Assembly (NCBI RefSeq): GCF_010501095.1
Contig: NZ_QVMP01000007.1
Coordinates: 1 to 32,000, forward strand
Direction: 5' to 3'
DNA: 32,000 nt
DNA from: Dysgonomonas sp. 520
GTDB taxonomy: Bacteria > Bacteroidota > Bacteroidia > Bacteroidales > Dysgonomonadaceae
The notes under the pieces are model-generated. The model was given only the letters and a program-made list of their open reading frames with translations, had not been told where the DNA came from and did not search any database. Made by a program: the position numbers and the translations under genes. Of this stretch, positions 139 to 28,556 are shown one piece after another (positions within the stretch are counted from its first letter, which is position 1; every line of letters starts with the position of its first letter).

Positions 139-2964
139 ATGATGCTACCAGAAAACTATCAATTGCTGAAAGATGAACTTTCAAAGAAAATCGATTCGAA
201 ACGAATCGTTACTAACCCGTTGCAACTACTGGCATACGGAACAGATGCAAGTTTTTATCGTTTAATACCTAAACTTGTGGTGCAAGTACACACAGAGGAA
301 GAGGCTGTTGAAGTGATACGGTTGACTGGAAAAATGAACATACCTGTAACCTATCGGGCTGCCGGAACAAGCCTTTCGGGACAAGCGATAAGCGACTCGG
401 TATTGATGGTAGCAACACACAAATGGAAAAAATATACTATTCTGGAAGACGGACTTAAAATTCGCCTGCAACCCGGTATTGTGGGAGCAAGAGCTAATAT
501 ATTCCTTGCACCTTTCGGCAGGAAAATAGGTCCTGATCCGGCCTCGATTAATGCTGCTATGATTGGAGGTATAGCGGCAAACAATGCAAGCGGGATGTGT
601 TGCGGCACTGCTCAAAACTCGTACCAGACCATTGCCGATATTCGTATAGTTTTATATGATGGTACAATATTAGACACATCGGACGACAAAAGTAAAAAGG
701 AATTCATAGAAAAGCACCCCGAGATAATTAAAGATATAGAATCACTGAGGGATGGTATAGAAGCAGATAGAGTATTATACGACAGAATAAAGCGTAAATT
801 CAAAATAAAAAACACCACAGGATACAGCATCAATGCCTTTGTCGATTTCAGCGATCCGTTCGAAATCATCAAACATCTGATGATCGGCTCGGAAGGCACA
901 TTGGCTTTCATCTCCAATATTACCTACAACACTGTTGTTGACGAAAAATATAAAGCATGTGCCTTGTTGATATTCGAAACGATAGAAAAAGCCTGTGAGG
1001 CTGTTCCTTTATTAAAAGAGAGTCCGGTTTCCGCCGTCGAGTTGTTAGACCGTGATTCCATTCGTTCGGTGGAAGATGATCCCGATGCTCCGGAGTATTT
1101 CAAGACTCTACCCGAAACGGCATGTGTTTTACTGGTCGAAATACAGGCTAACGACAAGGAAACAATGTCGACAAAAGAAACAGCCATCAGAAAGGCAATA
1201 GAAACAACTCCTACGATTTTGCCCTACAAATTTACGTCCGACCCGAAAGAATATAATTTCAACTGGAAAGCAAGGAAAGGACTCCTTTCGTCTGTTGGCG
1301 GATTAAGAAAAACCGGAACCACCTGTTTGATAGAAGATGTAGCTTTTCCTGTTTCCCGTTTGGCAGAAGCGTGTGTAGCCTTGAAAGACCTTTTCAAAAG
1401 GCTTGAATATCACGATGCTGTTCTTTTCGGTCATGCTTTGGAGGGAAATTTGCACCTTAATTTTTCTCAGGATTTTTCATCTCCGCAAGAGGTAGAACGT
1501 TATGCCAAACTGATGGATGAACTTGCCGATATTGTGGTGAACAGGTTCGACGGTTCGCTGAAAGCCGAACACGGCACAGGGCGCAACATGGCTCCTTTTG
1601 TGGAAAAAGAATGGGGAGAGGCGGCTTATAGTATAATGTTACGTATAAAGGATATCTTCGATCCGCTGAAACTAATAAATCCGGGAGTTATCATAAATGA
1701 AAATCCGAAAATACACCTCGAAAACCTAAAACCTTTACCTGCTGCACACGAATTGGTGGATAAATGTATGGAATGTGGTTTCTGCGAACCCAATTGTGTG
1801 TCGGAAGGATTAACACTTTCGCCACGCCAGCGTATTGTTATTGCCCGTGAAATTGCCCGTTTGAAGGCATTGGGCGAATCAACCGAAAGATTGGTACAAA
1901 TGCTGCATGACGCAAAATATTTTTCCGACGAGACATGTGCAACTGATGGATTATGCGGACTTGTTTGTCCTGTAAAAATAGACACGGGAAAATATATAAA
2001 GGAAGTGCGCCACATGGAATCATCCGACAGAGCAAAAAAAACGGCGGCGTACATAGGCGATCACATGAAAGACGTAACATCAGTTGGACGTGTCGGACTG
2101 AATTTTGTCGATTTCTTTCACTCTATATTGGGAGACACTTTGATGGGAGGAATAGCCGGCGGTATGAGAACTATCTCGGGAAACAGGATTCCTAAATGGA
2201 ACAAAGATATGCCCAAAGGCTCGCACAAGATAAAACATTCTGTGGTGAATGAGAGTCAAGAAAATAAAGTTGTGTATTTTCCGTCCTGCATCAACCGCAC
2301 GATGGGAAAATCGAAGGGATATGAAAAAGATGAAGTGGAACTAACCCGAAAAACGGAAGAATTATTGACCAGAGCAGGATTTACAATCATCTATCCCGAA
2401 AATCTGGATAAATTGTGTTGCGGTATGGCATTCAGTAGCAAGGGATTGAAAGACGAAGGAAGTAAAAAATCGAAGGAACTGGAAGCCGCCTTGTTCGAGG
2501 CCTCTGATGGTGGGAAATATCCGGTTCTCTTCGATATGAGTCCTTGTTTTTATACTTTTCACGATGCTTGCGCAAACGAAGCCTTGAAGATTTATGATCC
2601 TATCGAGTTTATGCTCGATTTTGTAATGCCAAAGCTGCAAGTGAAGAATCCGAAAAAGATAGTGACAGTATTTCCTGTTTGCTCTGTCAAAAAAATAGGA
2701 ATGGAGCAAAACCTGTACAAACTAGCTCAAATGTGTTCGGAAGAAGTGAAACTTGTGGAAAGCAATTGTTGCGGGTTTGCCGGCGATAGGGGTTTTACTT
2801 ATCCCGAGTTAAACAAACACGGATTAAGGCACTTACAGGAACAAATACCGGCAAATTGCAAAGAAGGCTATTCAACAAGCCGTACGTGTGAGATTGGGAT
2901 GAGCGAGTATAGCAATATCAACTTCAAATCTATTTTCTATTTGATAGATGAAGTAACCAGATAG
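139..2964 (+). CDS. FAD-linked oxidase fused to 4Fe-4S and CCG cysteine-rich domains (Dld-II-type D-lactate dehydrogenase-like oxidoreductase)
   Basis: 942-aa ORF. N-terminal FAD-oxidase-like motifs (RAAGTSLSGQA, GSEGTLAFI, KAEHGTGR). Two ferredoxin-type clusters (CMECGFCEPNC, CATDGLCGLVCP). Two C-terminal CCG motifs (LCCGMAF, NCCGFAGDRG). The track start at 136 is GTG; ATGs at 139 and 142 are equally plausible. Confidence 0.8.
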   Translation: MMLPENYQLLKDELSKKIDSKRIVTNPLQLLAYGTDASFYRLIPKLVVQVHTEEEAVEVIRLTGKMNIPVTYRAAGTSLSGQAISDSVLMVATHKWKKYTILEDGLKIRLQPGIVGARANIFLAPFGRKIGPDPASINAAMIGGIAANNASGMCCGTAQNSYQTIADIRIVLYDGTILDTSDDKSKKEFIEKHPEIIKDIESLRDGIEADRVLYDRIKRKFKIKNTTGYSINAFVDFSDPFEIIKHLMIGSEGTLAFISNITYNTVVDEKYKACALLIFETIEKACEAVPLLKESPVSAVELLDRDSIRSVEDDPDAPEYFKTLPETACVLLVEIQANDKETMSTKETAIRKAIETTPTILPYKFTSDPKEYNFNWKARKGLLSSVGGLRKTGTTCLIEDVAFPVSRLAEACVALKDLFKRLEYHDAVLFGHALEGNLHLNFSQDFSSPQEVERYAKLMDELADIVVNRFDGSLKAEHGTGRNMAPFVEKEWGEAAYSIMLRIKDIFDPLKLINPGVIINENPKIHLENLKPLPAAHELVDKCMECGFCEPNCVSEGLTLSPRQRIVIAREIARLKALGESTERLVQMLHDAKYFSDETCATDGLCGLVCPVKIDTGKYIKEVRHMESSDRAKKTAAYIGDHMKDVTSVGRVGLNFVDFFHSILGDTLMGGIAGGMRTISGNRIPKWNKDMPKGSHKIKHSVVNESQENKVVYFPSCINRTMGKSKGYEKDEVELTRKTEELLTRAGFTIIYPENLDKLCCGMAFSSKGLKDEGSKKSKELEAALFEASDGGKYPVLFDMSPCFYTFHDACANEALKIYDPIEFMLDFVMPKLQVKNPKKIVTVFPVCSVKKIGMEQNLYKLAQMCSEEVKLVESNCCGFAGDRGFTYPELNKHGLRHLQEQIPANCKEGYSTSRTCEIGMSEYSNINFKSIFYLIDEVTR

Positions 2965-2975
2965 AAAAAACTTGA

Positions 2976-3013
2976 GAAATGAGGTTATTTTTTGCGAAAA
3001 AAAACCTCATTTC
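2976..3013. terminator. Shared hairpin between convergent genes (likely bidirectional terminator)
   Basis: 11-bp perfect stem gaaatgaggtt (2976-2986) / aacctcatttc (3003-3013). The loop is itself self-complementary (tttttt..aaaaaa). T-rich on both sides. Lies between the stop at 2964 (+) and the stop at 3019 (-). Confidence 0.55.
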
Positions 3014-3018
3014 TTATT

Positions 3019-4278
3019 TCATACAAATTGTTTTTTGGGAACAACAGTCACCAATTTGAACAGCTTATCGGACGGGCGTATTTTGTCTGTCAGTTTAATT
3101 GAAAATTTTTCACCCTTAACAGTCTCTTGCACAGGTTTGAGATCTACACGAATCTCTTCCACTGTCTGAGTTATAGCTCCGGTTGTAGGACCGGTAATCA
3201 ATATTTCATCACCTACTTTCAGGGTTTGTGTCTCCATCAGGAATTCTCCGACCCCAAGATTTGAAAAATATTTGATGCCTTTCCCTATATATACTTTCTT
3301 CTTAGTAGATTCCGACCCGTAATTCATAGACCACTCGCCCAATCTTTGTCCAAGATAATAACCATCCCAAAATCCACGGTTGAAGACAGTTGCCAAACGG
3401 GAATCCCAGTCCTTTATCTTATCTTCGGAGAATGAACCGCCGCAATATGCTTTCACAGCTTCTTTATAACATTCAACAACTGTGCGCACATATTCAGCTC
3501 CACGGGCACGTCCCTCTATTTTGAAAACCCGTACTCCGGCATCCATCATTTTATTCATGAAATGGATTGTTTTCAAATCTTTAGGAGACATAATGTATTC
3601 ATTATCAATCTCTAATTCTATTTCACTGTCTTTGTCCTTAACAATATATCCACGACGGCAAATCTGGTTGCATGCCCCTCTGTTTGCCGACAAATGTTTT
3701 TCGTGAAGACTCAGATAGCATTTTCCTGAAACAGCCATACACAATGCTCCATGAGAAAACATTTCTATGCGGATCAGTTCTCCATTTGGTCCTTTAATTT
3801 GCTGGTTTTCTATATCTTGGTATATACTATGAACCTGCTCAAGGTTCAACTCACGAGCCAATACAACAACATCAGCAAACTGACCATAAAATTTCAAAGC
3901 CTCTGTGTTGGTAATATTCAGTTGAGTTGATAAATGTACTTCAACATCTATGCTGCGAGCATACATCATGACTGACACATCCGAAGCGATAATTGCCGAT
4001 ATATTAGCCTCTTTAGCCGCATCCACAATTTTGCGCATCAATTCTATGTCATTGTCATAAATGATTGTATTTACAGTCAGGTAGCTTTTAATGCCGTTTT
4101 CCTTACATATTCCGGCTATATTTTTGAGGTCGTCTGTTGTAAAATTATTTGCCGACTTGGCACGCATATTCAACCCTTCTATACCAAAATAGATTGAATC
4201 TGCTCCTCCTTGTATAGCTGCCGCCAACGATTCGTACGAACCCACGGGAGCCATTATTTCAAAGTCTTTTATATTCAT
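3019..4278 (-). CDS. Peptidase U32 family protein (collagenase-like PrtC type)
   Basis: Contains the U32 signature E-x-F-x2-G-[SA]-[LIVM]-C-x4-G-x-C-x-[LIVM]-S as EMFSHGALCMAVSGKCYLS. N-terminus FEIMAPVGS is typical of the family. The track start at 4296 is a TTG; the first ATG (MNIKDFEIMAP) is at 4278. Confidence 0.85.
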   Translation of the reverse strand: MNIKDFEIMAPVGSYESLAAAIQGGADSIYFGIEGLNMRAKSANNFTTDDLKNIAGICKENGIKSYLTVNTIIYDNDIELMRKIVDAAKEANISAIIASDVSVMMYARSIDVEVHLSTQLNITNTEALKFYGQFADVVVLARELNLEQVHSIYQDIENQQIKGPNGELIRIEMFSHGALCMAVSGKCYLSLHEKHLSANRGACNQICRRGYIVKDKDSEIELEIDNEYIMSPKDLKTIHFMNKMMDAGVRVFKIEGRARGAEYVRTVVECYKEAVKAYCGGSFSEDKIKDWDSRLATVFNRGFWDGYYLGQRLGEWSMNYGSESTKKKVYIGKGIKYFSNLGVGEFLMETQTLKVGDEILITGPTTGAITQTVEEIRVDLKPVQETVKGEKFSIKLTDKIRPSDKLFKLVTVVPKKQFV

Positions 4279-4339
4279 TTCAATATAAGATGTCAATAGA
4301 ATCTAGAGTCTGTTTATTTTTTTTGAGAGTACAAAGATA

Positions 4340-23891: not shown

Positions 23892-26039
23892 TTACTCTGC
23901 AAGTAATATTTCCATAATCTGAACAGCAGCTTTCGTAACCGAAGTACCCGGTCCAAAGATTGCGGCAACACCAGACTTGTAAAGGAAGTCGTAATCCTGT
24001 GCGGGTATAACCCCTCCTGCAATCACCACTATATCCTCACGACCAAGTTTCTTAAGTTCCGCTATCACCTGTGGCACAAGCGTTTTGTGACCCGCAGCCA
24101 GAGAAGATACTCCAAGAACATTCACGTCGTTTTCCACAGCCTGACGTGCAGCTTCTTCCGGAGTTTGGAACAATGGCCCCATATCTACGTCGAATCCACA
24201 GTCTGCATAACCGGTAGCAACTACTTTAGCTCCACGGTCGTGTCCGTCCTGACCCATTTTTGCAATCATAATACGGGGTTGACGACCTTCTTTCTTTGCG
24301 AATTCCGCCACAAGCTCTTTTGCTTGTTGGAATGTAGAATCATTTTTAGTTTCTGATGAATACACGCCTGATATTGTTCTGATTATAGCTTTATAACGAC
24401 CTACAACTACCTCGCAGGCATCTGAAATTTCACCTAGAGTAGCACGAACACGCGCTGCTTCCACCGCAAGTTCGAGCAAGTTTCCTTTTTTCGTTTTCAC
24501 GCATTCTGTGATAGCTTCCAATGCTTTCTTAACAGCATCATTGTCACGGTTAGCTTTCAGTTCGTTCAAACGCTCGATTTGCTGACGGCGAACTTCCGTG
24601 TTATCCACATCAAGAATATCAATAGGATCTTCTTTCTCCAAACGGTATTTGTTAACACCGATAATAGTTTGAGCACCCGAGTCAATTTTAGCCTGAGTAC
24701 GTGCAGCAGCTTCCTCGATACGCATTTTTGGAAGACCTGTTTCGATAGCTTTCGCCATGCCACCCAATTTTTGTATCTCTTGAATATGTTCCCACGCTTT
24801 ATGCACAAGTTCGTTTGTCAGTGTTTCCACATAATAAGAACCTGCCCAAGGGTCAATTTCTTTTGTAATCTGAGTTTCCTCTTGAATATATATCTGAGTA
24901 TTACGTGCAATACGTGCAGAAAAATCGGTAGGAAGTGCAATCGCTTCGTCCAACGCGTTGGTGTGAAGTGACTGAGTGTGTCCAAGTGCCGATGCCATTG
25001 CTTCGATACAAGTACGTCCTACGTTATTGAATGGGTCTTGCTCTGTCAGCGACCATCCCGAAGTTTGAGAGTGAGTACGCAAAGCCAGTGATTTCGGATT
25101 TTTGGCACCGAAACTTTTCACGATTTTCGCCCACAAAAGACGTCCGGCACGCATCTTGGCAATTTCCATAAAGTGATTCATGCCGATTGCCCAGAAGAAC
25201 GACAAACGTGGAGCGAAAGCATCCACATCAATGCCTGCGTCGATACCTGCTTTCAGGTATTCCATACCATCGGCAAGCGTATAAGCCAACTCGATATCGG
25301 CTGTTGCACCCGCTTCTTGCATGTGATAACCCGAAATAGAGATAGAGTTGAACTTAGGCATCTTCTGAGATGTATATTCAAAGATATCAGCGATAATCTT
25401 CATTGAAAATTCAGGTGGATAGATGTATGTATTACGCACCATGAATTCTTTCAGAATGTCATTCTGGATGGTACCTGCCATTTCTTCCAGTTTGGCACCT
25501 TGTTCCAATCCTGCATTGATGTAGAACGCAAGTACAGGAAGAACCGCACCGTTCATAGTCATAGATACTGACATCTGGCTCAACGGAATACCATCGAACA
25601 ACACTTTCATATCTTCAACCGAGCAGATAGAAACACCGGCTTTACCGACGTCACCCACCACACGAGGATGGTCGGCATCGTATCCACGGTGCGTAGCCAA
25701 GTCGAAAGCAACGGAAAGACCTTTTTGTCCCGATGCCAGGTTACGACGGTAGAATGCGTTGGATTCGGCAGCAGTAGAGAATCCTGCATACTGACGGATT
25801 GTCCAGGGACGCATAGCGTACATGCCCGAATATGGTCCACGAAGGAAGGGGGGTAATCCCGAAGCATAATTCAGATGCTCCATTCCTTCCAAATCTTCTT
25901 TTGTGTAAACGGATTTCACCGCAATAAGCTCAGGAGTCATCCAGTCTGCTTTGATATCATTGTCGGCAATCCATTTTGCAGCATCTGTCTGAGCAAATCC
26001 TGCATTTTTGATATCTATATTTTTAAAATCTGGTTTCAT
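23892..26039 (-). CDS. mutB: Methylmalonyl-CoA mutase large (catalytic, B12-binding) subunit
   Basis: 715 aa. TIM-barrel substrate-domain motifs ([21 protein letters not shown]) and a C-terminal cobalamin domain with DxHxxG (QDGHDRG). Confidence 0.95.
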
Positions 26040-26059
26040 TGTTTTATATTTATTTTTGT

Positions 26060-26087
26060 AAACGCAAAGACAGTAAGACGCTAAGAA
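26060..26087. repeat. Left terminal inverted repeat of the GxxExxY cassette
   Basis: AAAC followed by three tandem 8-mers GCAAAGAC AGTAAGAC GCTAAGAA. The last 8-mer overlaps the ORF stop codon. Confidence 0.5.
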
Positions 26088-26479
26088 ATAAAATAATTAT
26101 TGACTTTTCTTTTAATGCCTTCTTTCAATAAAGCAACATTGAAATTTATCAAATAACCCAGTCTCAAATCTGTAAGCTTTAAATAAGTTACTAATTGTAC
26201 TTCATCAACTTTGTGTAAAAGTTCACAAGATTTAAGTTCTATAATAATAAGGTTTTCTACCAGAATATCAATTTTGAAGAATTTGTCTAATTTCTGACCT
26301 TTATAAAAAACAGGTAGTTCCACTTGACTTTTTACTTCTAAATTTCTATTTCTTAATTCTTCACAAAGACAGATTTCATAGACAGACTCTAATAAACCGG
26401 GACCTAATTCCCGATGCACTTCAATGGATGCATCAAGAATATGTTTTCCGATTTCTTCGTATCTTTCTTTTAAAACCAT
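26081..26479 (-). CDS. GxxExxY protein (PD-(D/E)XK nuclease-superfamily fold)
   Basis: 132 aa. Literal GLLESVY (GxxExxY) motif and a D...ELK motif ([14 protein letters not shown]). Confidence 0.85.
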
Positions 26480-26505
26480 CTTTGTGTCTTTGCTTCTTAG
26501 CGTTT
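26478..26505. repeat. Right terminal inverted repeat of the GxxExxY cassette
   Basis: The reverse complement reads AAAC GCTAAGAA GCAAAGAC ACAAAGAT. It matches the left repeat at 20 of 28 positions. The inner 8-mer overlaps the ORF start codon. Confidence 0.5.
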
Positions 26506-26512
26506 ATATATA

Positions 26513-28408
26513 TTATTGAATTCCAAGTTTAGCATTGAATGTTCTTAATGTATCGAGCACGTTACTTCTCACATTAACGAAATGCTCAATTCCCTGAGCT
26601 TTCAATTCATCCATCGAAGCAGGAGCACCCGCTACAACAAAATGAGCTTTTCCTTGTATCAATTTGTGAGCTTCCGGAGCATATTCGGCATATTCATCGT
26701 CGCTAGAGCAAAGCACGATGATATCCGCTTTCTTGTCGAATGCAGCTTTCACACCTTCTTCCACAGTTTGGAAACCTAAGTTATCAATAACTTTATATCC
26801 TGCACAACCAAAGAAGTTAGCCGAGAACTGAGAACGAGCCAAACGCATAGCCAGATTACCGATAGTCAGCATGAATACAACAGGTGTTTTATCTGCTTTT
26901 TCAGTAGCCAGACGTAATTTTTCGAAGTCGGTAGCCAAACGTGTTGTTGGCAATGACTGAAGCGTACCTTGCGAGTGACCTTCGCCACATCCGCAGTTGC
27001 AACCACCTTCAACAATTTTGTGAGCAGCTGTTTCTGTGAAGTTAGGATATTGGTTAGTTCCCAACAGTATCTCGCGACGTGTTGCAACCGCTTTCGAACG
27101 ATTGGCAGCAGAAGCAGCGATAGCCGATTGAACTGTTCCGGCTTTCAATGCTTCGTAGAAACCTTTTTCGTCTGTTTCGAGGAATAATTTCCATGCTTGT
27201 TCAGCGATAGAAGACGTTAGGTTTTCGATATAATAAGAACCTGCCGAGGCATCGGTAATTTTATCGAAGTGACATTCTTCTTTCAACAGCAATTGTTGGT
27301 TACGTGCGATTCTTTCAGAGAAATCATCCGAATCTTTATAGGCTTCGTCGAAAGGAAGAACTGTTAAAGAATTGATACCCGCGATAGTTGCCGACATAGC
27401 TTCTGTTTGGCTACGAAGCAAGTTGACATGAGCATCGAAGATAGTCATATTGTAGGTAGAAGTTTCGGCATGTGCATAAATCTTGGCAGCACATCTGCAT
27501 AATCCGTCATCAGTTTTATTAGAACATTCGTTCGGACATTTAGGGTTGTAAGCCATTACTATTTCTGCCCACAACCAGCGTGCAGCACGGAATTTAGCTA
27601 TTTCCATGAAATAGTTTGAACCGATGCCAAAGTTGAATTTGATTTTCTTAGCAACCAAAGTTGCATCCAAACCTTTTTCTGTCAGTTTGCTCAATATTTC
27701 GTTACCGTTTGCCAATGCGTAACCTAGTTCCTGATAGATATAAGAACCTGCATTGTTTAAACGGGTTGCATTCACATTCAATACTCTGAAACGTGGAAGC
27801 GGAGCCGCAGCTAAAGCAATTTCAGCAGCTTTTTCCACCCACTCAGCATTGTCAACGCCCTTTTTGAGGATCGTTTTGAACGGGTCGTAATTAACCGATC
27901 CAAAGCATTGCAATACATCTACATTCTGCGATTTGATGTAATCTACAAGGATTTTCACCAATTCGAGAGAATGTTTCTGACAAGTTGAAAAATTCAACTC
28001 TACTGCTTCGGGATGAATACCGTTCAAAAGAGCTTTGATGTTTTCCGCATTCACATCCTTGCCCTTGATGTGGAAACCAAGTGACGTAACTCCCTTGTCT
28101 AAAATATCCAAAGCCTTTGCGTTAGCAGCTTTGAAATCAACAACATTGATGTCTTGACGCACATACCAGTTGTTGTCTTTTTTTGTTCCTCTTACGTAAG
28201 GAAACTCTCCGGGCAGTGAATCCACTGTCTTAAGACCTTCCAGATTTTCACCTCTGTAGAAAGGGTTAACATTAAATCCCTCGTTTGTTTTCCAAACGAG
28301 TTTCTTCTCAAAATCAGCACCTTTCAGATCGGCAGTTATTTTTGCCATCCATTCTTCCGTTGACACGGGAGGGAAATCTGTAAAAAGCTTTTCTTTTAGA
28401 TTTGCCAT
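26513..28408 (-). CDS. mutA: Methylmalonyl-CoA mutase small (non-catalytic) subunit
   Basis: 631 aa, homologous to the large subunit (FMEIAKFRAARWLWA, SERIARNQQ) but lacks DxHxxG in the C-terminal domain. Confidence 0.9.
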   Translation of the reverse strand: MANLKEKLFTDFPPVSTEEWMAKITADLKGADFEKKLVWKTNEGFNVNPFYRGENLEGLKTVDSLPGEFPYVRGTKKDNNWYVRQDINVVDFKAANAKALDILDKGVTSLGFHIKGKDVNAENIKALLNGIHPEAVELNFSTCQKHSLELVKILVDYIKSQNVDVLQCFGSVNYDPFKTILKKGVDNAEWVEKAAEIALAAAPLPRFRVLNVNATRLNNAGSYIYQELGYALANGNEILSKLTEKGLDATLVAKKIKFNFGIGSNYFMEIAKFRAARWLWAEIVMAYNPKCPNECSNKTDDGLCRCAAKIYAHAETSTYNMTIFDAHVNLLRSQTEAMSATIAGINSLTVLPFDEAYKDSDDFSERIARNQQLLLKEECHFDKITDASAGSYYIENLTSSIAEQAWKLFLETDEKGFYEALKAGTVQSAIAASAANRSKAVATRREILLGTNQYPNFTETAAHKIVEGGCNCGCGEGHSQGTLQSLPTTRLATDFEKLRLATEKADKTPVVFMLTIGNLAMRLARSQFSANFFGCAGYKVIDNLGFQTVEEGVKAAFDKKADIIVLCSSDDEYAEYAPEAHKLIQGKAHFVVAGAPASMDELKAQGIEHFVNVRSNVLDTLRTFNAKLGIQ

Positions 28409-28548: not shown

Positions 28549-28556
28549 CAAAGTTA
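28549..28556 (-). promoter_or_regulatory. -7 box (TAACTTTG on the minus strand) candidate promoter for mutA
   Basis: CAAAGTTA on the + strand, about 140 nt upstream of the mutA ATG and downstream of the 28693-28733 terminator. No good -33 element seen. Confidence 0.35.

Follow-up and report, generated by a model that had tools for sequence, protein, structure and literature searches.

The window analysed here is the stretch of 32,000 nucleotides (32 kb) at positions 1 to 32,000 of contig NZ_QVMP01000007.1 from Dysgonomonas sp. 520 (assembly GCF_010501095.1). It contains the genes for the two subunits of methylmalonyl-CoA mutase, mutA and mutB, which lie in the same orientation on the minus strand and are separated by a small open reading frame (ORF) of the GxxExxY family. 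This ORF is bracketed by short inverted arms built of tandem 8-mers, and the ORF together with its arms is referred to below as the cassette. In the order of transcription, the locus comprises the following features.

26513-28408, minus strand: mutA, methylmalonyl-CoA mutase small subunit, the host gene upstream (TIGR00642, E 5.8e-201)
26506-26512, minus strand: spacer of 7 nt between the mutA stop and the cassette, TATATAT (from the sequence)
26478-26505, minus strand: 5′ arm, on the operon strand AAAC GCTAAGAA GCAAAGAC ACAAAGAT, with its inner end overlapping the ATG (from the sequence and motif matches)
26081-26479, minus strand: GxxExxY / PDDEXK_3 ORF of 132 aa with an ATG start and a TAG stop (Pfam and NCBIfam, E 3e-42)
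26060-26087, minus strand: 3′ arm, on the operon strand TTCTTAGC GTCTTACT GTCTTTGC GTTT, with its inner end overlapping the TAG stop (from the sequence and motif matches)
26040-26059, minus strand: A-rich spacer of 20 nt between the cassette and the mutB start codon (from the sequence)
23892-26039, minus strand: mutB, methylmalonyl-CoA mutase large subunit, the host gene downstream (NF006944, 1297.7 bits)

The cassette is 446 bp long, and its ORF is separated from the mut genes by gaps of 33 nt and 41 nt. Read in register, the arm at 26060-26087 (AAAC followed by GCAAAGAC, AGTAAGAC and GCTAAGAA) and that at 26478-26505 (AAAC followed by GCTAAGAA, GCAAAGAC and ACAAAGAT) are identical at 20 of 28 positions. 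Each comprises three 8-mers of the family unit C-R-C-N-R-A-G-N, the 3′ arm being the reverse complement. An earlier note on this DNA, made from the sequence without database searches, had described the 132-aa ORF with its GLLESVY and D..ELK motifs in the orientation of the two mut genes, the lengths of both gaps, and 28-nt arms of AAAC plus three 8-mers that overlap the start and stop codons and match at 20 of 28 positions; the coordinates, the sequence and the profile searches bear out this description. The G+C content of the ORF is 28.1%, compared with 41.5% and 45.0% in the neighbouring genes. Excision of the segment AAACGC...GCGTTT from the window leaves a mutA-mutB spacer of 27 nt (7 + 20), which resembles the 15-25-nt empty sites described below. 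The cassette region of the window matches no Rfam family, and neither a sense-strand promoter motif (TAnnTTTG) nor a terminator was found in the gaps around the ORF.

For the mutA-cassette-mutB transcript, a candidate promoter is provided by a TAACTTTG motif at 28549-28556 on the minus strand, which precedes the mutA start by approximately 140 nt. An antisense Bacteroidetes-type -7 motif (TATTTTTG, TAnnTTTG) at 26051-26058 on the plus strand, just before the 3′ arm, was dropped from consideration, being unconserved in the inspected orthologues and probably a product of chance.

In related genomes the junction of mutA and mutB is often empty. The alignment gap between the two genes does not exceed 45 nt in 56 of the 77 related loci having both, and in the closest Dysgonomonas genomes they are separated by an A-rich spacer of 15-25 nt, free of arm remnants; the mutA gene of the window is 81% identical to that of Dysgonomonas sp. 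216. The 22 occupied junctions display a constant geometry, with median distances of 4 nt from the mutA stop to the 5′ arm and of 16 nt from the 3′ arm to the mutB ATG. The corresponding distances in the window are 8 nt, measured to the AAC anchor, and 21 nt. GxxExxY cassettes occupy the junction in Paludibacter, Tannerella, Prevotella, Bacteroides, Marinifilaceae and Prolixibacteraceae. Genes encoding four-helix-bundle proteins (PF05635, Avd-like) are found at the same place (L013 5932-6285, L015 5989-6384 and L032 6031-6414), and PF05635 cassettes are present there in 36 of 78 metagenomic loci (L296-L375). The PF05635 cassettes have inverted arms of tandem units that recur every 7 nt, such as AACCAAG, AGCAAAG and TAGTATT. 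The junction also harbours a GxxExxY pseudogene with retained arms (L025) and ORF-less hairpins (L014, L008, L056, L084 and L085), which share the period of the matching ORF-bearing type, as decay products would. The mutA-mutB junction is an insertion hot spot.

Several other genes were observed between mutA and mutB. A third small insert consists of ORF6N-domain genes or their remnants, flanked by the palindrome TTATCACAATTTGTGATAA (L090 2600-2900, L082 1790-1830 and L062 6585-6950), and a metagenome-assembled genome of Tannerella carries a gene for a 177-aa NYN-domain (RNase-like) protein at L036 5852-6385, around which periodic arms are not visible. In Proteiniphilum and related lineages (L011, L012, L013, L016, L026, L062 and L068) the junction contains a UbiA-family prenyltransferase gene, often accompanied by a gene for a CPBP-type protease-like protein, the latter recognised by eye only. 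These UbiA and CPBP genes look like real operon members and not like cassettes.

The homologues of the window ORF in Bacteroidia at 62-69% identity are all located at the mutA-mutB junction of distant members of this class, with the exception of one located after prfA, and metagenomic relatives at 98%, 86% and 80% identity keep the site as well. The arms of the orthologous cassettes read (G)AACGCAAAGACRCAAAGACGCAAAG-ATG upstream and TAA..CTTnGCGnCTTAGCGTCTTCGCGTT downstream, the 3′ arms following the pattern CTTnGCG..GCGTT; the earlier note is correct in placing flanks of the AAGACGCAAAGA type beside such genes in other Bacteroidota. The relationships among the cassettes do not follow those of their hosts. 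The cassette protein of Mangrovibacterium L089 is 86% identical to that of Labilibaculum, whereas the mutA genes of the two are 65% identical; its identity to the cassette protein of the congener L217 is 75%, the values for mutA and mutB being 89% and 96%, and the profiles of DNA identity switch at the cassette borders. Incongruence was assessed by bootstrapping between-group distances (1000 replicates). In 99.3% of the replicates the cassette proteins of Prolixibacteraceae group A are nearer to those of Marinifilaceae than to those of group B, a result obtained in 0% of replicates for mutA and 0% for mutB. Likewise, the cassette of Paludibacteraceae L050 groups with the Marinilabiliales type in 100% of the replicates, and its host genes do so in 0%. 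The arm type, with CGC or CAC units, tracks the lineage of the ORF and not that of the host. Because the cassette phylogeny conflicts with the mutA and mutB phylogenies, these comparisons indicate at least two lateral replacements at the same mutA-mutB site, which are old because the synonymous divergence (dS) is saturated. The cassette is an inserted unit of ORF and arms, laterally transferred with the site kept and tolerated in operon spacers.

The same organisation extends far beyond Bacteroidia. A profile-guided scan yielded 80 GxxExxY loci; inverted-repeat and period statistics were computed on 84 loci, and composition and conserved residues were analysed on 87. The 80 scanned loci span Bacteroidota, Acidobacteriota, Planctomycetota, Verrucomicrobiota, Chloroflexota, Desulfobacterota, Proteobacteria, cyanobacteria and one archaeon, and nearly all of them contain a purine-rich tandem arm upstream of the ORF and its reverse complement downstream. 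The arms, which closely abut the start and stop of the ORF, usually consist of three or four units, typically CACAGAGA, CACGGAGA, CGCAGAGG, CGCAAAGA or CACGAAGA, and often end in TCACCAC...GTGGTGA. That the ORF and the repeats travel together, a check named in the earlier note, is supported by the statistics: the inverted repeat scored above all 100 shuffles in 63% of the 84 loci (median score 28, compared with 17 in controls), the arm duplexes are far stabler than shuffled ones (p 3e-12), and the best lag was 8 in 42 of 84 upstream and 37 of 84 downstream arms, against 7 of 84 in an in-ORF control. Many family members outside the mut site have near-perfect repeats of 24-57 bp and represent younger-looking cassettes.

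The insertion sites of the family include pheS-pheT, groEL-dnaJ, trpE-trpG, glpK-glpD, icd-prpD and the spacer between radA and a gene for a FAD protein. The cassettes lie in short spacers directly past the stop of an upstream housekeeping gene, in many cases with the genes for two subunits of a single enzyme on either side. Among 62 loci, the upstream neighbour runs in the direction of the ORF in 52 and both neighbours do so in 41, and the G+C content of the ORF is below that of its flanks in 87 of 87 loci, with a median difference of -11.6 points. The insertion module in operons that the earlier note had envisaged accords with these co-directional short spacers of housekeeping operons, with the empty sites and with lateral transfer that retains the site. 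The GxxExxY family comprises 18,938 clusters at 50% identity, and the octamer-armed GxxExxY cassette represents a very widespread, cross-phylum and apparently undescribed class of mini-cassettes; no description of periodic arms around GxxExxY or PF05635 genes was found in the literature searched (full text).

At the mutA-mutB junction of Bacteroidia, where cassettes of both types occur, the period of the arms depends on the gene that they enclose. The best period was 8 in 46.5 of 54 arms of GxxExxY cassettes and 7 in 54 of 64 arms of four-helix-bundle cassettes, and within each cargo family the period is maintained across widely differing unit sequences. This specificity of the period for the cargo protein implies that the arms and the ORF are a functionally coupled unit. 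The idea that both cargo types share the same arms was rejected, their periods being 7 and 8.

The protein encoded by the window ORF is assigned to the PDDEXK_3 family PF13366 with 144.1 bits (cut-off 22, E 3e-42, profile positions 2-116 of 117) and to the GxxExxY family TIGR04256 with 143.5 bits (cut-off 35, E 3e-42). It contains the motifs G28-L-L-E31-S-V-Y34 (GLLESVY), D71, E81-L-K83 and Q95xxxY99, and the residues E31, Y34, D71, E81, K83, Q95 and Y99 are kept in 86-87 of the 87 homologues. Ten pairwise comparisons gave ratios of non-synonymous to synonymous substitution (dN/dS) of 0.03-0.10, indicative of strong purifying selection. An AlphaFold2 model of the protein has a predicted local distance difference test score (pLDDT) of 90.4 and a predicted template modelling score (pTM) of 0.85. 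Its best match among solved folds is Cas4 SSO0001 (E 3.8e-3, template modelling score, TM, 0.53), followed by lambda exonuclease and the AdnAB nuclease domains, all of low similarity. The PADLOC defence-system models returned weak Cas4 matches only, and no sequence relative was found in the PDB by single-sequence and profile searches. Because of the purifying selection, the conserved residues and the confident Cas4-like fold, the GxxExxY protein is predicted to be an active nuclease, very probably a minimal PD-(D/E)XK enzyme of the RecB/Cas4 type. A published survey classes the family as one of unknown function and notes multiple transfers (PMC3424549). Proteins of approximately 275 aa with two GxxExxY-like stretches (P0121-P0137 and others) were also observed and represent tandem-domain fusions.

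We estimate the probability at roughly 0.6 that the 446-bp segment is an inserted selfish cassette similar to the 23S rRNA intervening sequences (IVS) and to the short tandemly repeated repetitive (STRR) hairpins of cyanobacteria, faithful to its site and not an original part of the mut operon. A number of observations weigh against this reading. In the window, the inverted repeat (35 nt, 71% complementary) has a Smith-Waterman score of 22, barely above chance (z 2.6), since shuffled sequences averaged 16.3 and reached 26, and the arm helix is interrupted, with 17 Watson-Crick pairs and one G-U pair over 24 positions. Conservation and complementarity between the arms are confined, at the mut site, to the CRC and RAG triplets; in 13-17 of 22 elements the N positions have no pairing partner, and in close relatives (80-86% identity) R and N bases of the arms have changed without compensation. 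Mismatches on the sense strand are of the A.C type in 130 cases and of the G.U type in 75 (p 1.5e-4), and duplex energies reveal no strand preference (p 0.40). No target-site duplication was detected in 61 of 74 cassettes, and those of 2-4 nt in the others are as frequent as by chance, the boundary finder being noisy; the window cassette is flanked by TATATAT on one side and ACAAAAA on the other. In plasmids the GxxExxY family was found in 8 of 72,556 records, and in phages it was absent. Finally, the strong purifying selection and the saturation of dS between lineages point to a long residence, atypical of a fast-cycling selfish element, and it is possible that the host benefits from the cassette.

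The conservation of the arms at the mut site is better explained by a repeated motif that is recognised than by a continuous helix under selection. The outermost R position of these arms covaries perfectly, with 14 G-C pairs, 8 A-U pairs and none unpaired, and in minimum-free-energy folds of both strands of the window a stem between the arms closes the cassette (z -3.8 and -3.4). Pairing at the RNA level and at the DNA level are indistinguishable by these tests, because neither the mismatch types nor the energies favour the sense RNA. In the window, the pairing of the arms is stronger on the antisense strand (-34.0 against -24.3 kcal/mol).

The weak inverted repeat of the window would be expected if the flanking similarity were a chance product of AT- and purine-rich intergenic DNA and the ORF an ordinary small gene, and its score indeed falls within the range of the shuffles. 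The repeat motif behaves differently. The doubled family unit CRCNRAGNCRCNRAG, with up to one mismatch allowed, matches the 32 kb at four places, each of them within one of the arms and oriented as expected; by chance 0.70 matches would be expected, and 0 of 100 shuffles reached four. Two consecutive copies of RCWAAGAM, with up to two mismatches, have six matches in the window against 1.24 expected, four of them at the arms. Moreover, the arms are conserved at no fewer than 25 orthologous loci, and the inverted-repeat and period statistics are strong across the family. The window repeat motif is not due to chance, though the complementarity of the arms alone is near chance, so the flanking similarity asserted in the earlier note exceeds chance as a motif and not as an inverted repeat taken by itself. 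The chance explanation, to which we assign almost no credence, is already refuted by the tests on the family arms, on the inverted repeats and periods, and on the window motif.

The long residence of the cassette raises another explanation, namely that the ORF is a domesticated or host-beneficial small nuclease for repair, processing or defence, old and mainly vertically inherited in strongly expressed operons, whose arms are merely cis-regulatory elements for translational coupling or mRNA stability. The low dN/dS with an invariant active site, the occupation of one junction across families with saturated dS, the missing target-site duplications and the virtual absence from plasmids and phages all agree with it. 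Within clades the identity of the cassettes tracks that of the host genes (Spearman 0.42-0.53), and for STRR hairpins a role in transcript stabilisation or translational coupling has been proposed (PMC2670836). Mainly vertical inheritance of a useful gene is nevertheless at odds with the empty junctions of close relatives, with the presence of unrelated occupants (four-helix-bundle, NYN and ORF6N genes) at the same junction and of the same cassette type in unrelated operons, and with a phylogeny significantly incongruent with that of the host genes. The deficit in G+C content at all loci tested and the existence of decay products also speak against it, and we regard domestication as unlikely.

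As an inserted selfish cassette, the element would be promoterless and would probably depend on the mut promoter for its transcription, by read-through. Its arms may then pair in the mRNA and loop out the AT-rich ORF, a step for which we would offer slightly less than even odds; with the ORF looped out, the mutA stop and the mutB start would again lie some 20 nt apart, as in the empty site. Such a stem would bury the start and stop codons of the cassette, and it would be opened by ribosomes that terminate on mutA at 4-8 nt before the arm, which would couple translation. Cutting of a long stem by RNase III, as in the 23S rRNA intervening sequences, is a rather unlikely addition, and less likely for the degenerate window copy. 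The conserved CRC and RAG triplets could be recognition elements through which the cassette protein binds its own periodic arms, a suggestion made with the same reserve as that of pairing in the transcript. More doubtfully, the nuclease would promote the copying of the cassette into homologous empty junctions in a homing-like manner. As an alternative to homing, the cassette could spread passively, carried along by homologous recombination in the adjoining mutA and mutB genes, which are highly conserved.

Hairpins with the same arms and without an ORF were found in Acidobacteriota, Planctomycetota, Chloroflexota and Bacteroidota, where they form arrays; copies in relatives include those in L088, L149-L151 and L268. 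Rfam contains no family matching eight ORF-less hairpin loci, and a motif scan detected no ORF-less arm copies elsewhere in the 32-kb window. In Thermoguttaceae (Planctomycetota), at L268 1840-4060, at least eight ORF-less octamer hairpins surround one GxxExxY gene in a layout like that of repetitive extragenic palindromic (REP) sequences and bacterial interspersed mosaic elements (BIME). The order 5′ arm, ORF, 5′ arm, 3′ arm was observed at L261 2447-2984, L232 2446-2958 and L239 2283-2753; a single 3′ arm is able to pair with either 5′ arm in these loci, so alternative structures are possible.

The hairpins raise another possibility: a tandem-repeat hairpin without an ORF, similar to foldback elements, miniature inverted-repeat transposable elements (MITE) or REP sequences, would be the primary mobile unit, moved or generated by an unlinked enzyme, with the GxxExxY ORF as a passenger in its loop. 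Their distribution over four phyla, the arrays such as that in L268, their presence at the mut junction and the layout with a doubled 5′ arm are what such a unit would produce. A passenger, on the other hand, would hardly be restricted to two small protein families, the only ones inside such arms in the loci examined, nor would the arm period be expected to follow the cargo, as it does with 8 and 7 at one site. The strong purifying selection on the ORF is a further difficulty, and at the mut site each ORF-less copy shares its period with the corresponding ORF-bearing type, as a decay product would. This explanation appears quite improbable, and the selfish cassette that includes its ORF is retained as the preferred reading.

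The closest described objects are the 23S rRNA intervening sequences, followed by the STRR hairpins. In Coxiella burnetii the intervening sequence is 428 nt long and contains an ORF and a 28-bp terminal stem, which RNase III cuts at mid-stem; its ORF is decaying and apparently untranslated (PMC4990558). With the ORF-bearing IVS of Leptospira and Coxiella the cassette shares its size of approximately 430-450 nt, a single small ORF in the loop, a location within a strongly transcribed unit and an A+T content above that of the host. Its terminal inverted repeats may likewise enclose the ORF in a stem of about 28 bp, which in the window is a predicted and interrupted one. Sporadic distribution and inferred horizontal transfer are further common traits, and the IVS are likewise regarded as selfish. 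A direct connection is provided by the PF05635 cassettes, which use the same mutA-mutB junction as the GxxExxY element. Unlike the IVS, the cassette is located in the spacer of a protein-coding operon and not in helix 25 or 45 of 23S rRNA, it encodes a PD-(D/E)XK protein (PF13366) in place of the four-helix-bundle protein (PF05635), and its arms are tandem 8-mers which are poorly paired in the window copy. Its ORF is under strong purifying selection, in contrast to that of the Coxiella IVS, and RNase III excision, demonstrated for the rRNA elements, is for the cassette a proposal by analogy. The statement in the earlier note that GxxExxY proteins were first noticed inside 23S rRNA intervening sequences is incorrect or unsupported: the family named after these sequences is the four-helix-bundle family PF05635, and none of the 375 fetched loci has any similarity to rRNA.

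Cyanobacterial STRR are heptamer hairpins located, for example, between hupS and hupL, with an unknown function (PMC2670836), and the RNase P RNA gene has been reported to contain STRR heptamers as well (Vioque 1997, cited in PMC7593598). Like STRR, the cassette arms are short tandem repeats arranged in inverted orientation that would form a hairpin between putatively co-transcribed subunit genes, and the ORF-less hairpins of the cassette class look STRR-like. The cassette differs in its unit of 8 nt, in arms that bracket a nuclease gene and in its occurrence in many phyla, whereas STRR are 7-mers without an ORF in heterocystous cyanobacteria. Heptamers, as in STRR, flank the four-helix-bundle cassettes instead of GxxExxY. 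No link of STRR-type repeats to GxxExxY or PF05635 genes was found in the literature searched.

In its logic the element resembles homing endonuclease genes and the REPIN-RAYT system, yet it departs from each. REPIN-RAYT systems consist of REP hairpin repeats with GTAG-headed palindromes and of a REP-associated tyrosine transposase (RAYT) of the HUH/Y1 fold. As in these systems, a gene of nuclease type is flanked by inverted hairpin-forming repeats that also occur, in relatives of the window cassette, as ORF-less copies scattered through intergenic regions, the gene is under purifying selection and mostly vertically inherited, and the repeat sequence co-varies with the gene lineage. The cassette enzyme, unlike RAYT, belongs to the PD-(D/E)XK and not the HUH/Y1 fold, its repeats are tandem 8-mers, GxxExxY paralogues are many and the 32-kb window contains no ORF-less copy.

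Free-standing homing endonuclease genes include those responsible for 'intronless homing' in phages, and the PD-(D/E)XK enzyme I-Ssp6803I is a member of the group. The cassette shares with them a patchy presence, with empty sites in close relatives and same-site homologues in distant hosts, as well as tree conflicts with the flanking genes, a site between conserved genes, decay products and a nuclease fold. Cleavage of the empty site by the cassette enzyme is a proposal. Unlike homing endonuclease genes, the cassette has periodic inverted arms, and the much stronger purifying selection and longer residence differ from a cycle of gain, decay and loss; in addition, the four-helix-bundle cassettes have analogous arms of period 7 without a nuclease.

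Integron gene cassettes are similarly small, promoterless, co-oriented ORFs that are transcribed by read-through and form tandem arrays, and they have an imperfect inverted repeat in which a structure with unpaired positions is conserved over sequence. In the GxxExxY cassettes, however, the ORF is enclosed by the repeat, which in integron cassettes follows it, insertion is into housekeeping operons at dispersed places, and the arms show by inspection no R- and L-box organisation of attC, no formal attC, attI or IntI search having been made. Transposons and MITE differ in that the inverted repeats of the cassette are unaccompanied by target-site duplications (61 of 74).

A wider proposal, which we advance tentatively and consider more apt to fail than to hold, is that GxxExxY with octamer arms and PF05635 with heptamer arms are autonomous members of an unrecognised cross-phylum class of mobile elements. 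In each, the protein would recognise the periodic CRC and RAG units in the arms around its gene, in the form of folded single strands or of RNA, and would drive the copying of the cassette and of ORF-less STRR-like hairpins into the spacers of transcribed operons. Were this true, the class would parallel REPIN-RAYT with a PD-(D/E)XK enzyme or else constitute a novel kind of homing, and the 23S rRNA intervening sequences and STRR would be explained as special cases.

The GxxExxY proteins and the four-helix-bundle proteins of the 23S intervening sequences are among the commonest small bacterial proteins annotated as 'function unknown', and to our knowledge the rRNA intervening sequences and the cyanobacterial STRR repeats have been without an explanation since the early 1990s. 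The present comparison joins GxxExxY, IVS and STRR in one architecture of periodic inverted arms, a small ORF and a transcribed unit, and the cargo-specific period, the two conserved triplets per unit and the lateral movement with retention of the site render the problem testable. For annotation, it is relevant that the arms translate into spurious low-complexity peptides and that cassettes in operons are not to be annotated as genes of the respective pathway. We speculate that the arms may also be mistaken for repeats like those of CRISPR (clustered regularly interspaced short palindromic repeats). A large CRISPR-association screen lists '23S rRNA IVP' among the CRISPR-linked proteins (PMC10910872), and it may be speculated that this link arose through tandem arms picked up as CRISPR-like arrays.

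A scan of the collection with GAACGCAAAGNNNCNAAG was abandoned as too unspecific, most of the 120 matches being coding, although it exposed approximately 20 hairpins in other phyla. At L214 (reverse strand, approximately 1900-4300), in DNA of high G+C content by eye, a cassette with three copies each of CACAGAGA and TCTCTGTG lies between genes that appear by eye to be trpE- and trpG-like. Its repeats have been translated as MNHRDTETQR, and an ORF-less GCAAAG hairpin is located in the next spacer, after the trpG-like gene.

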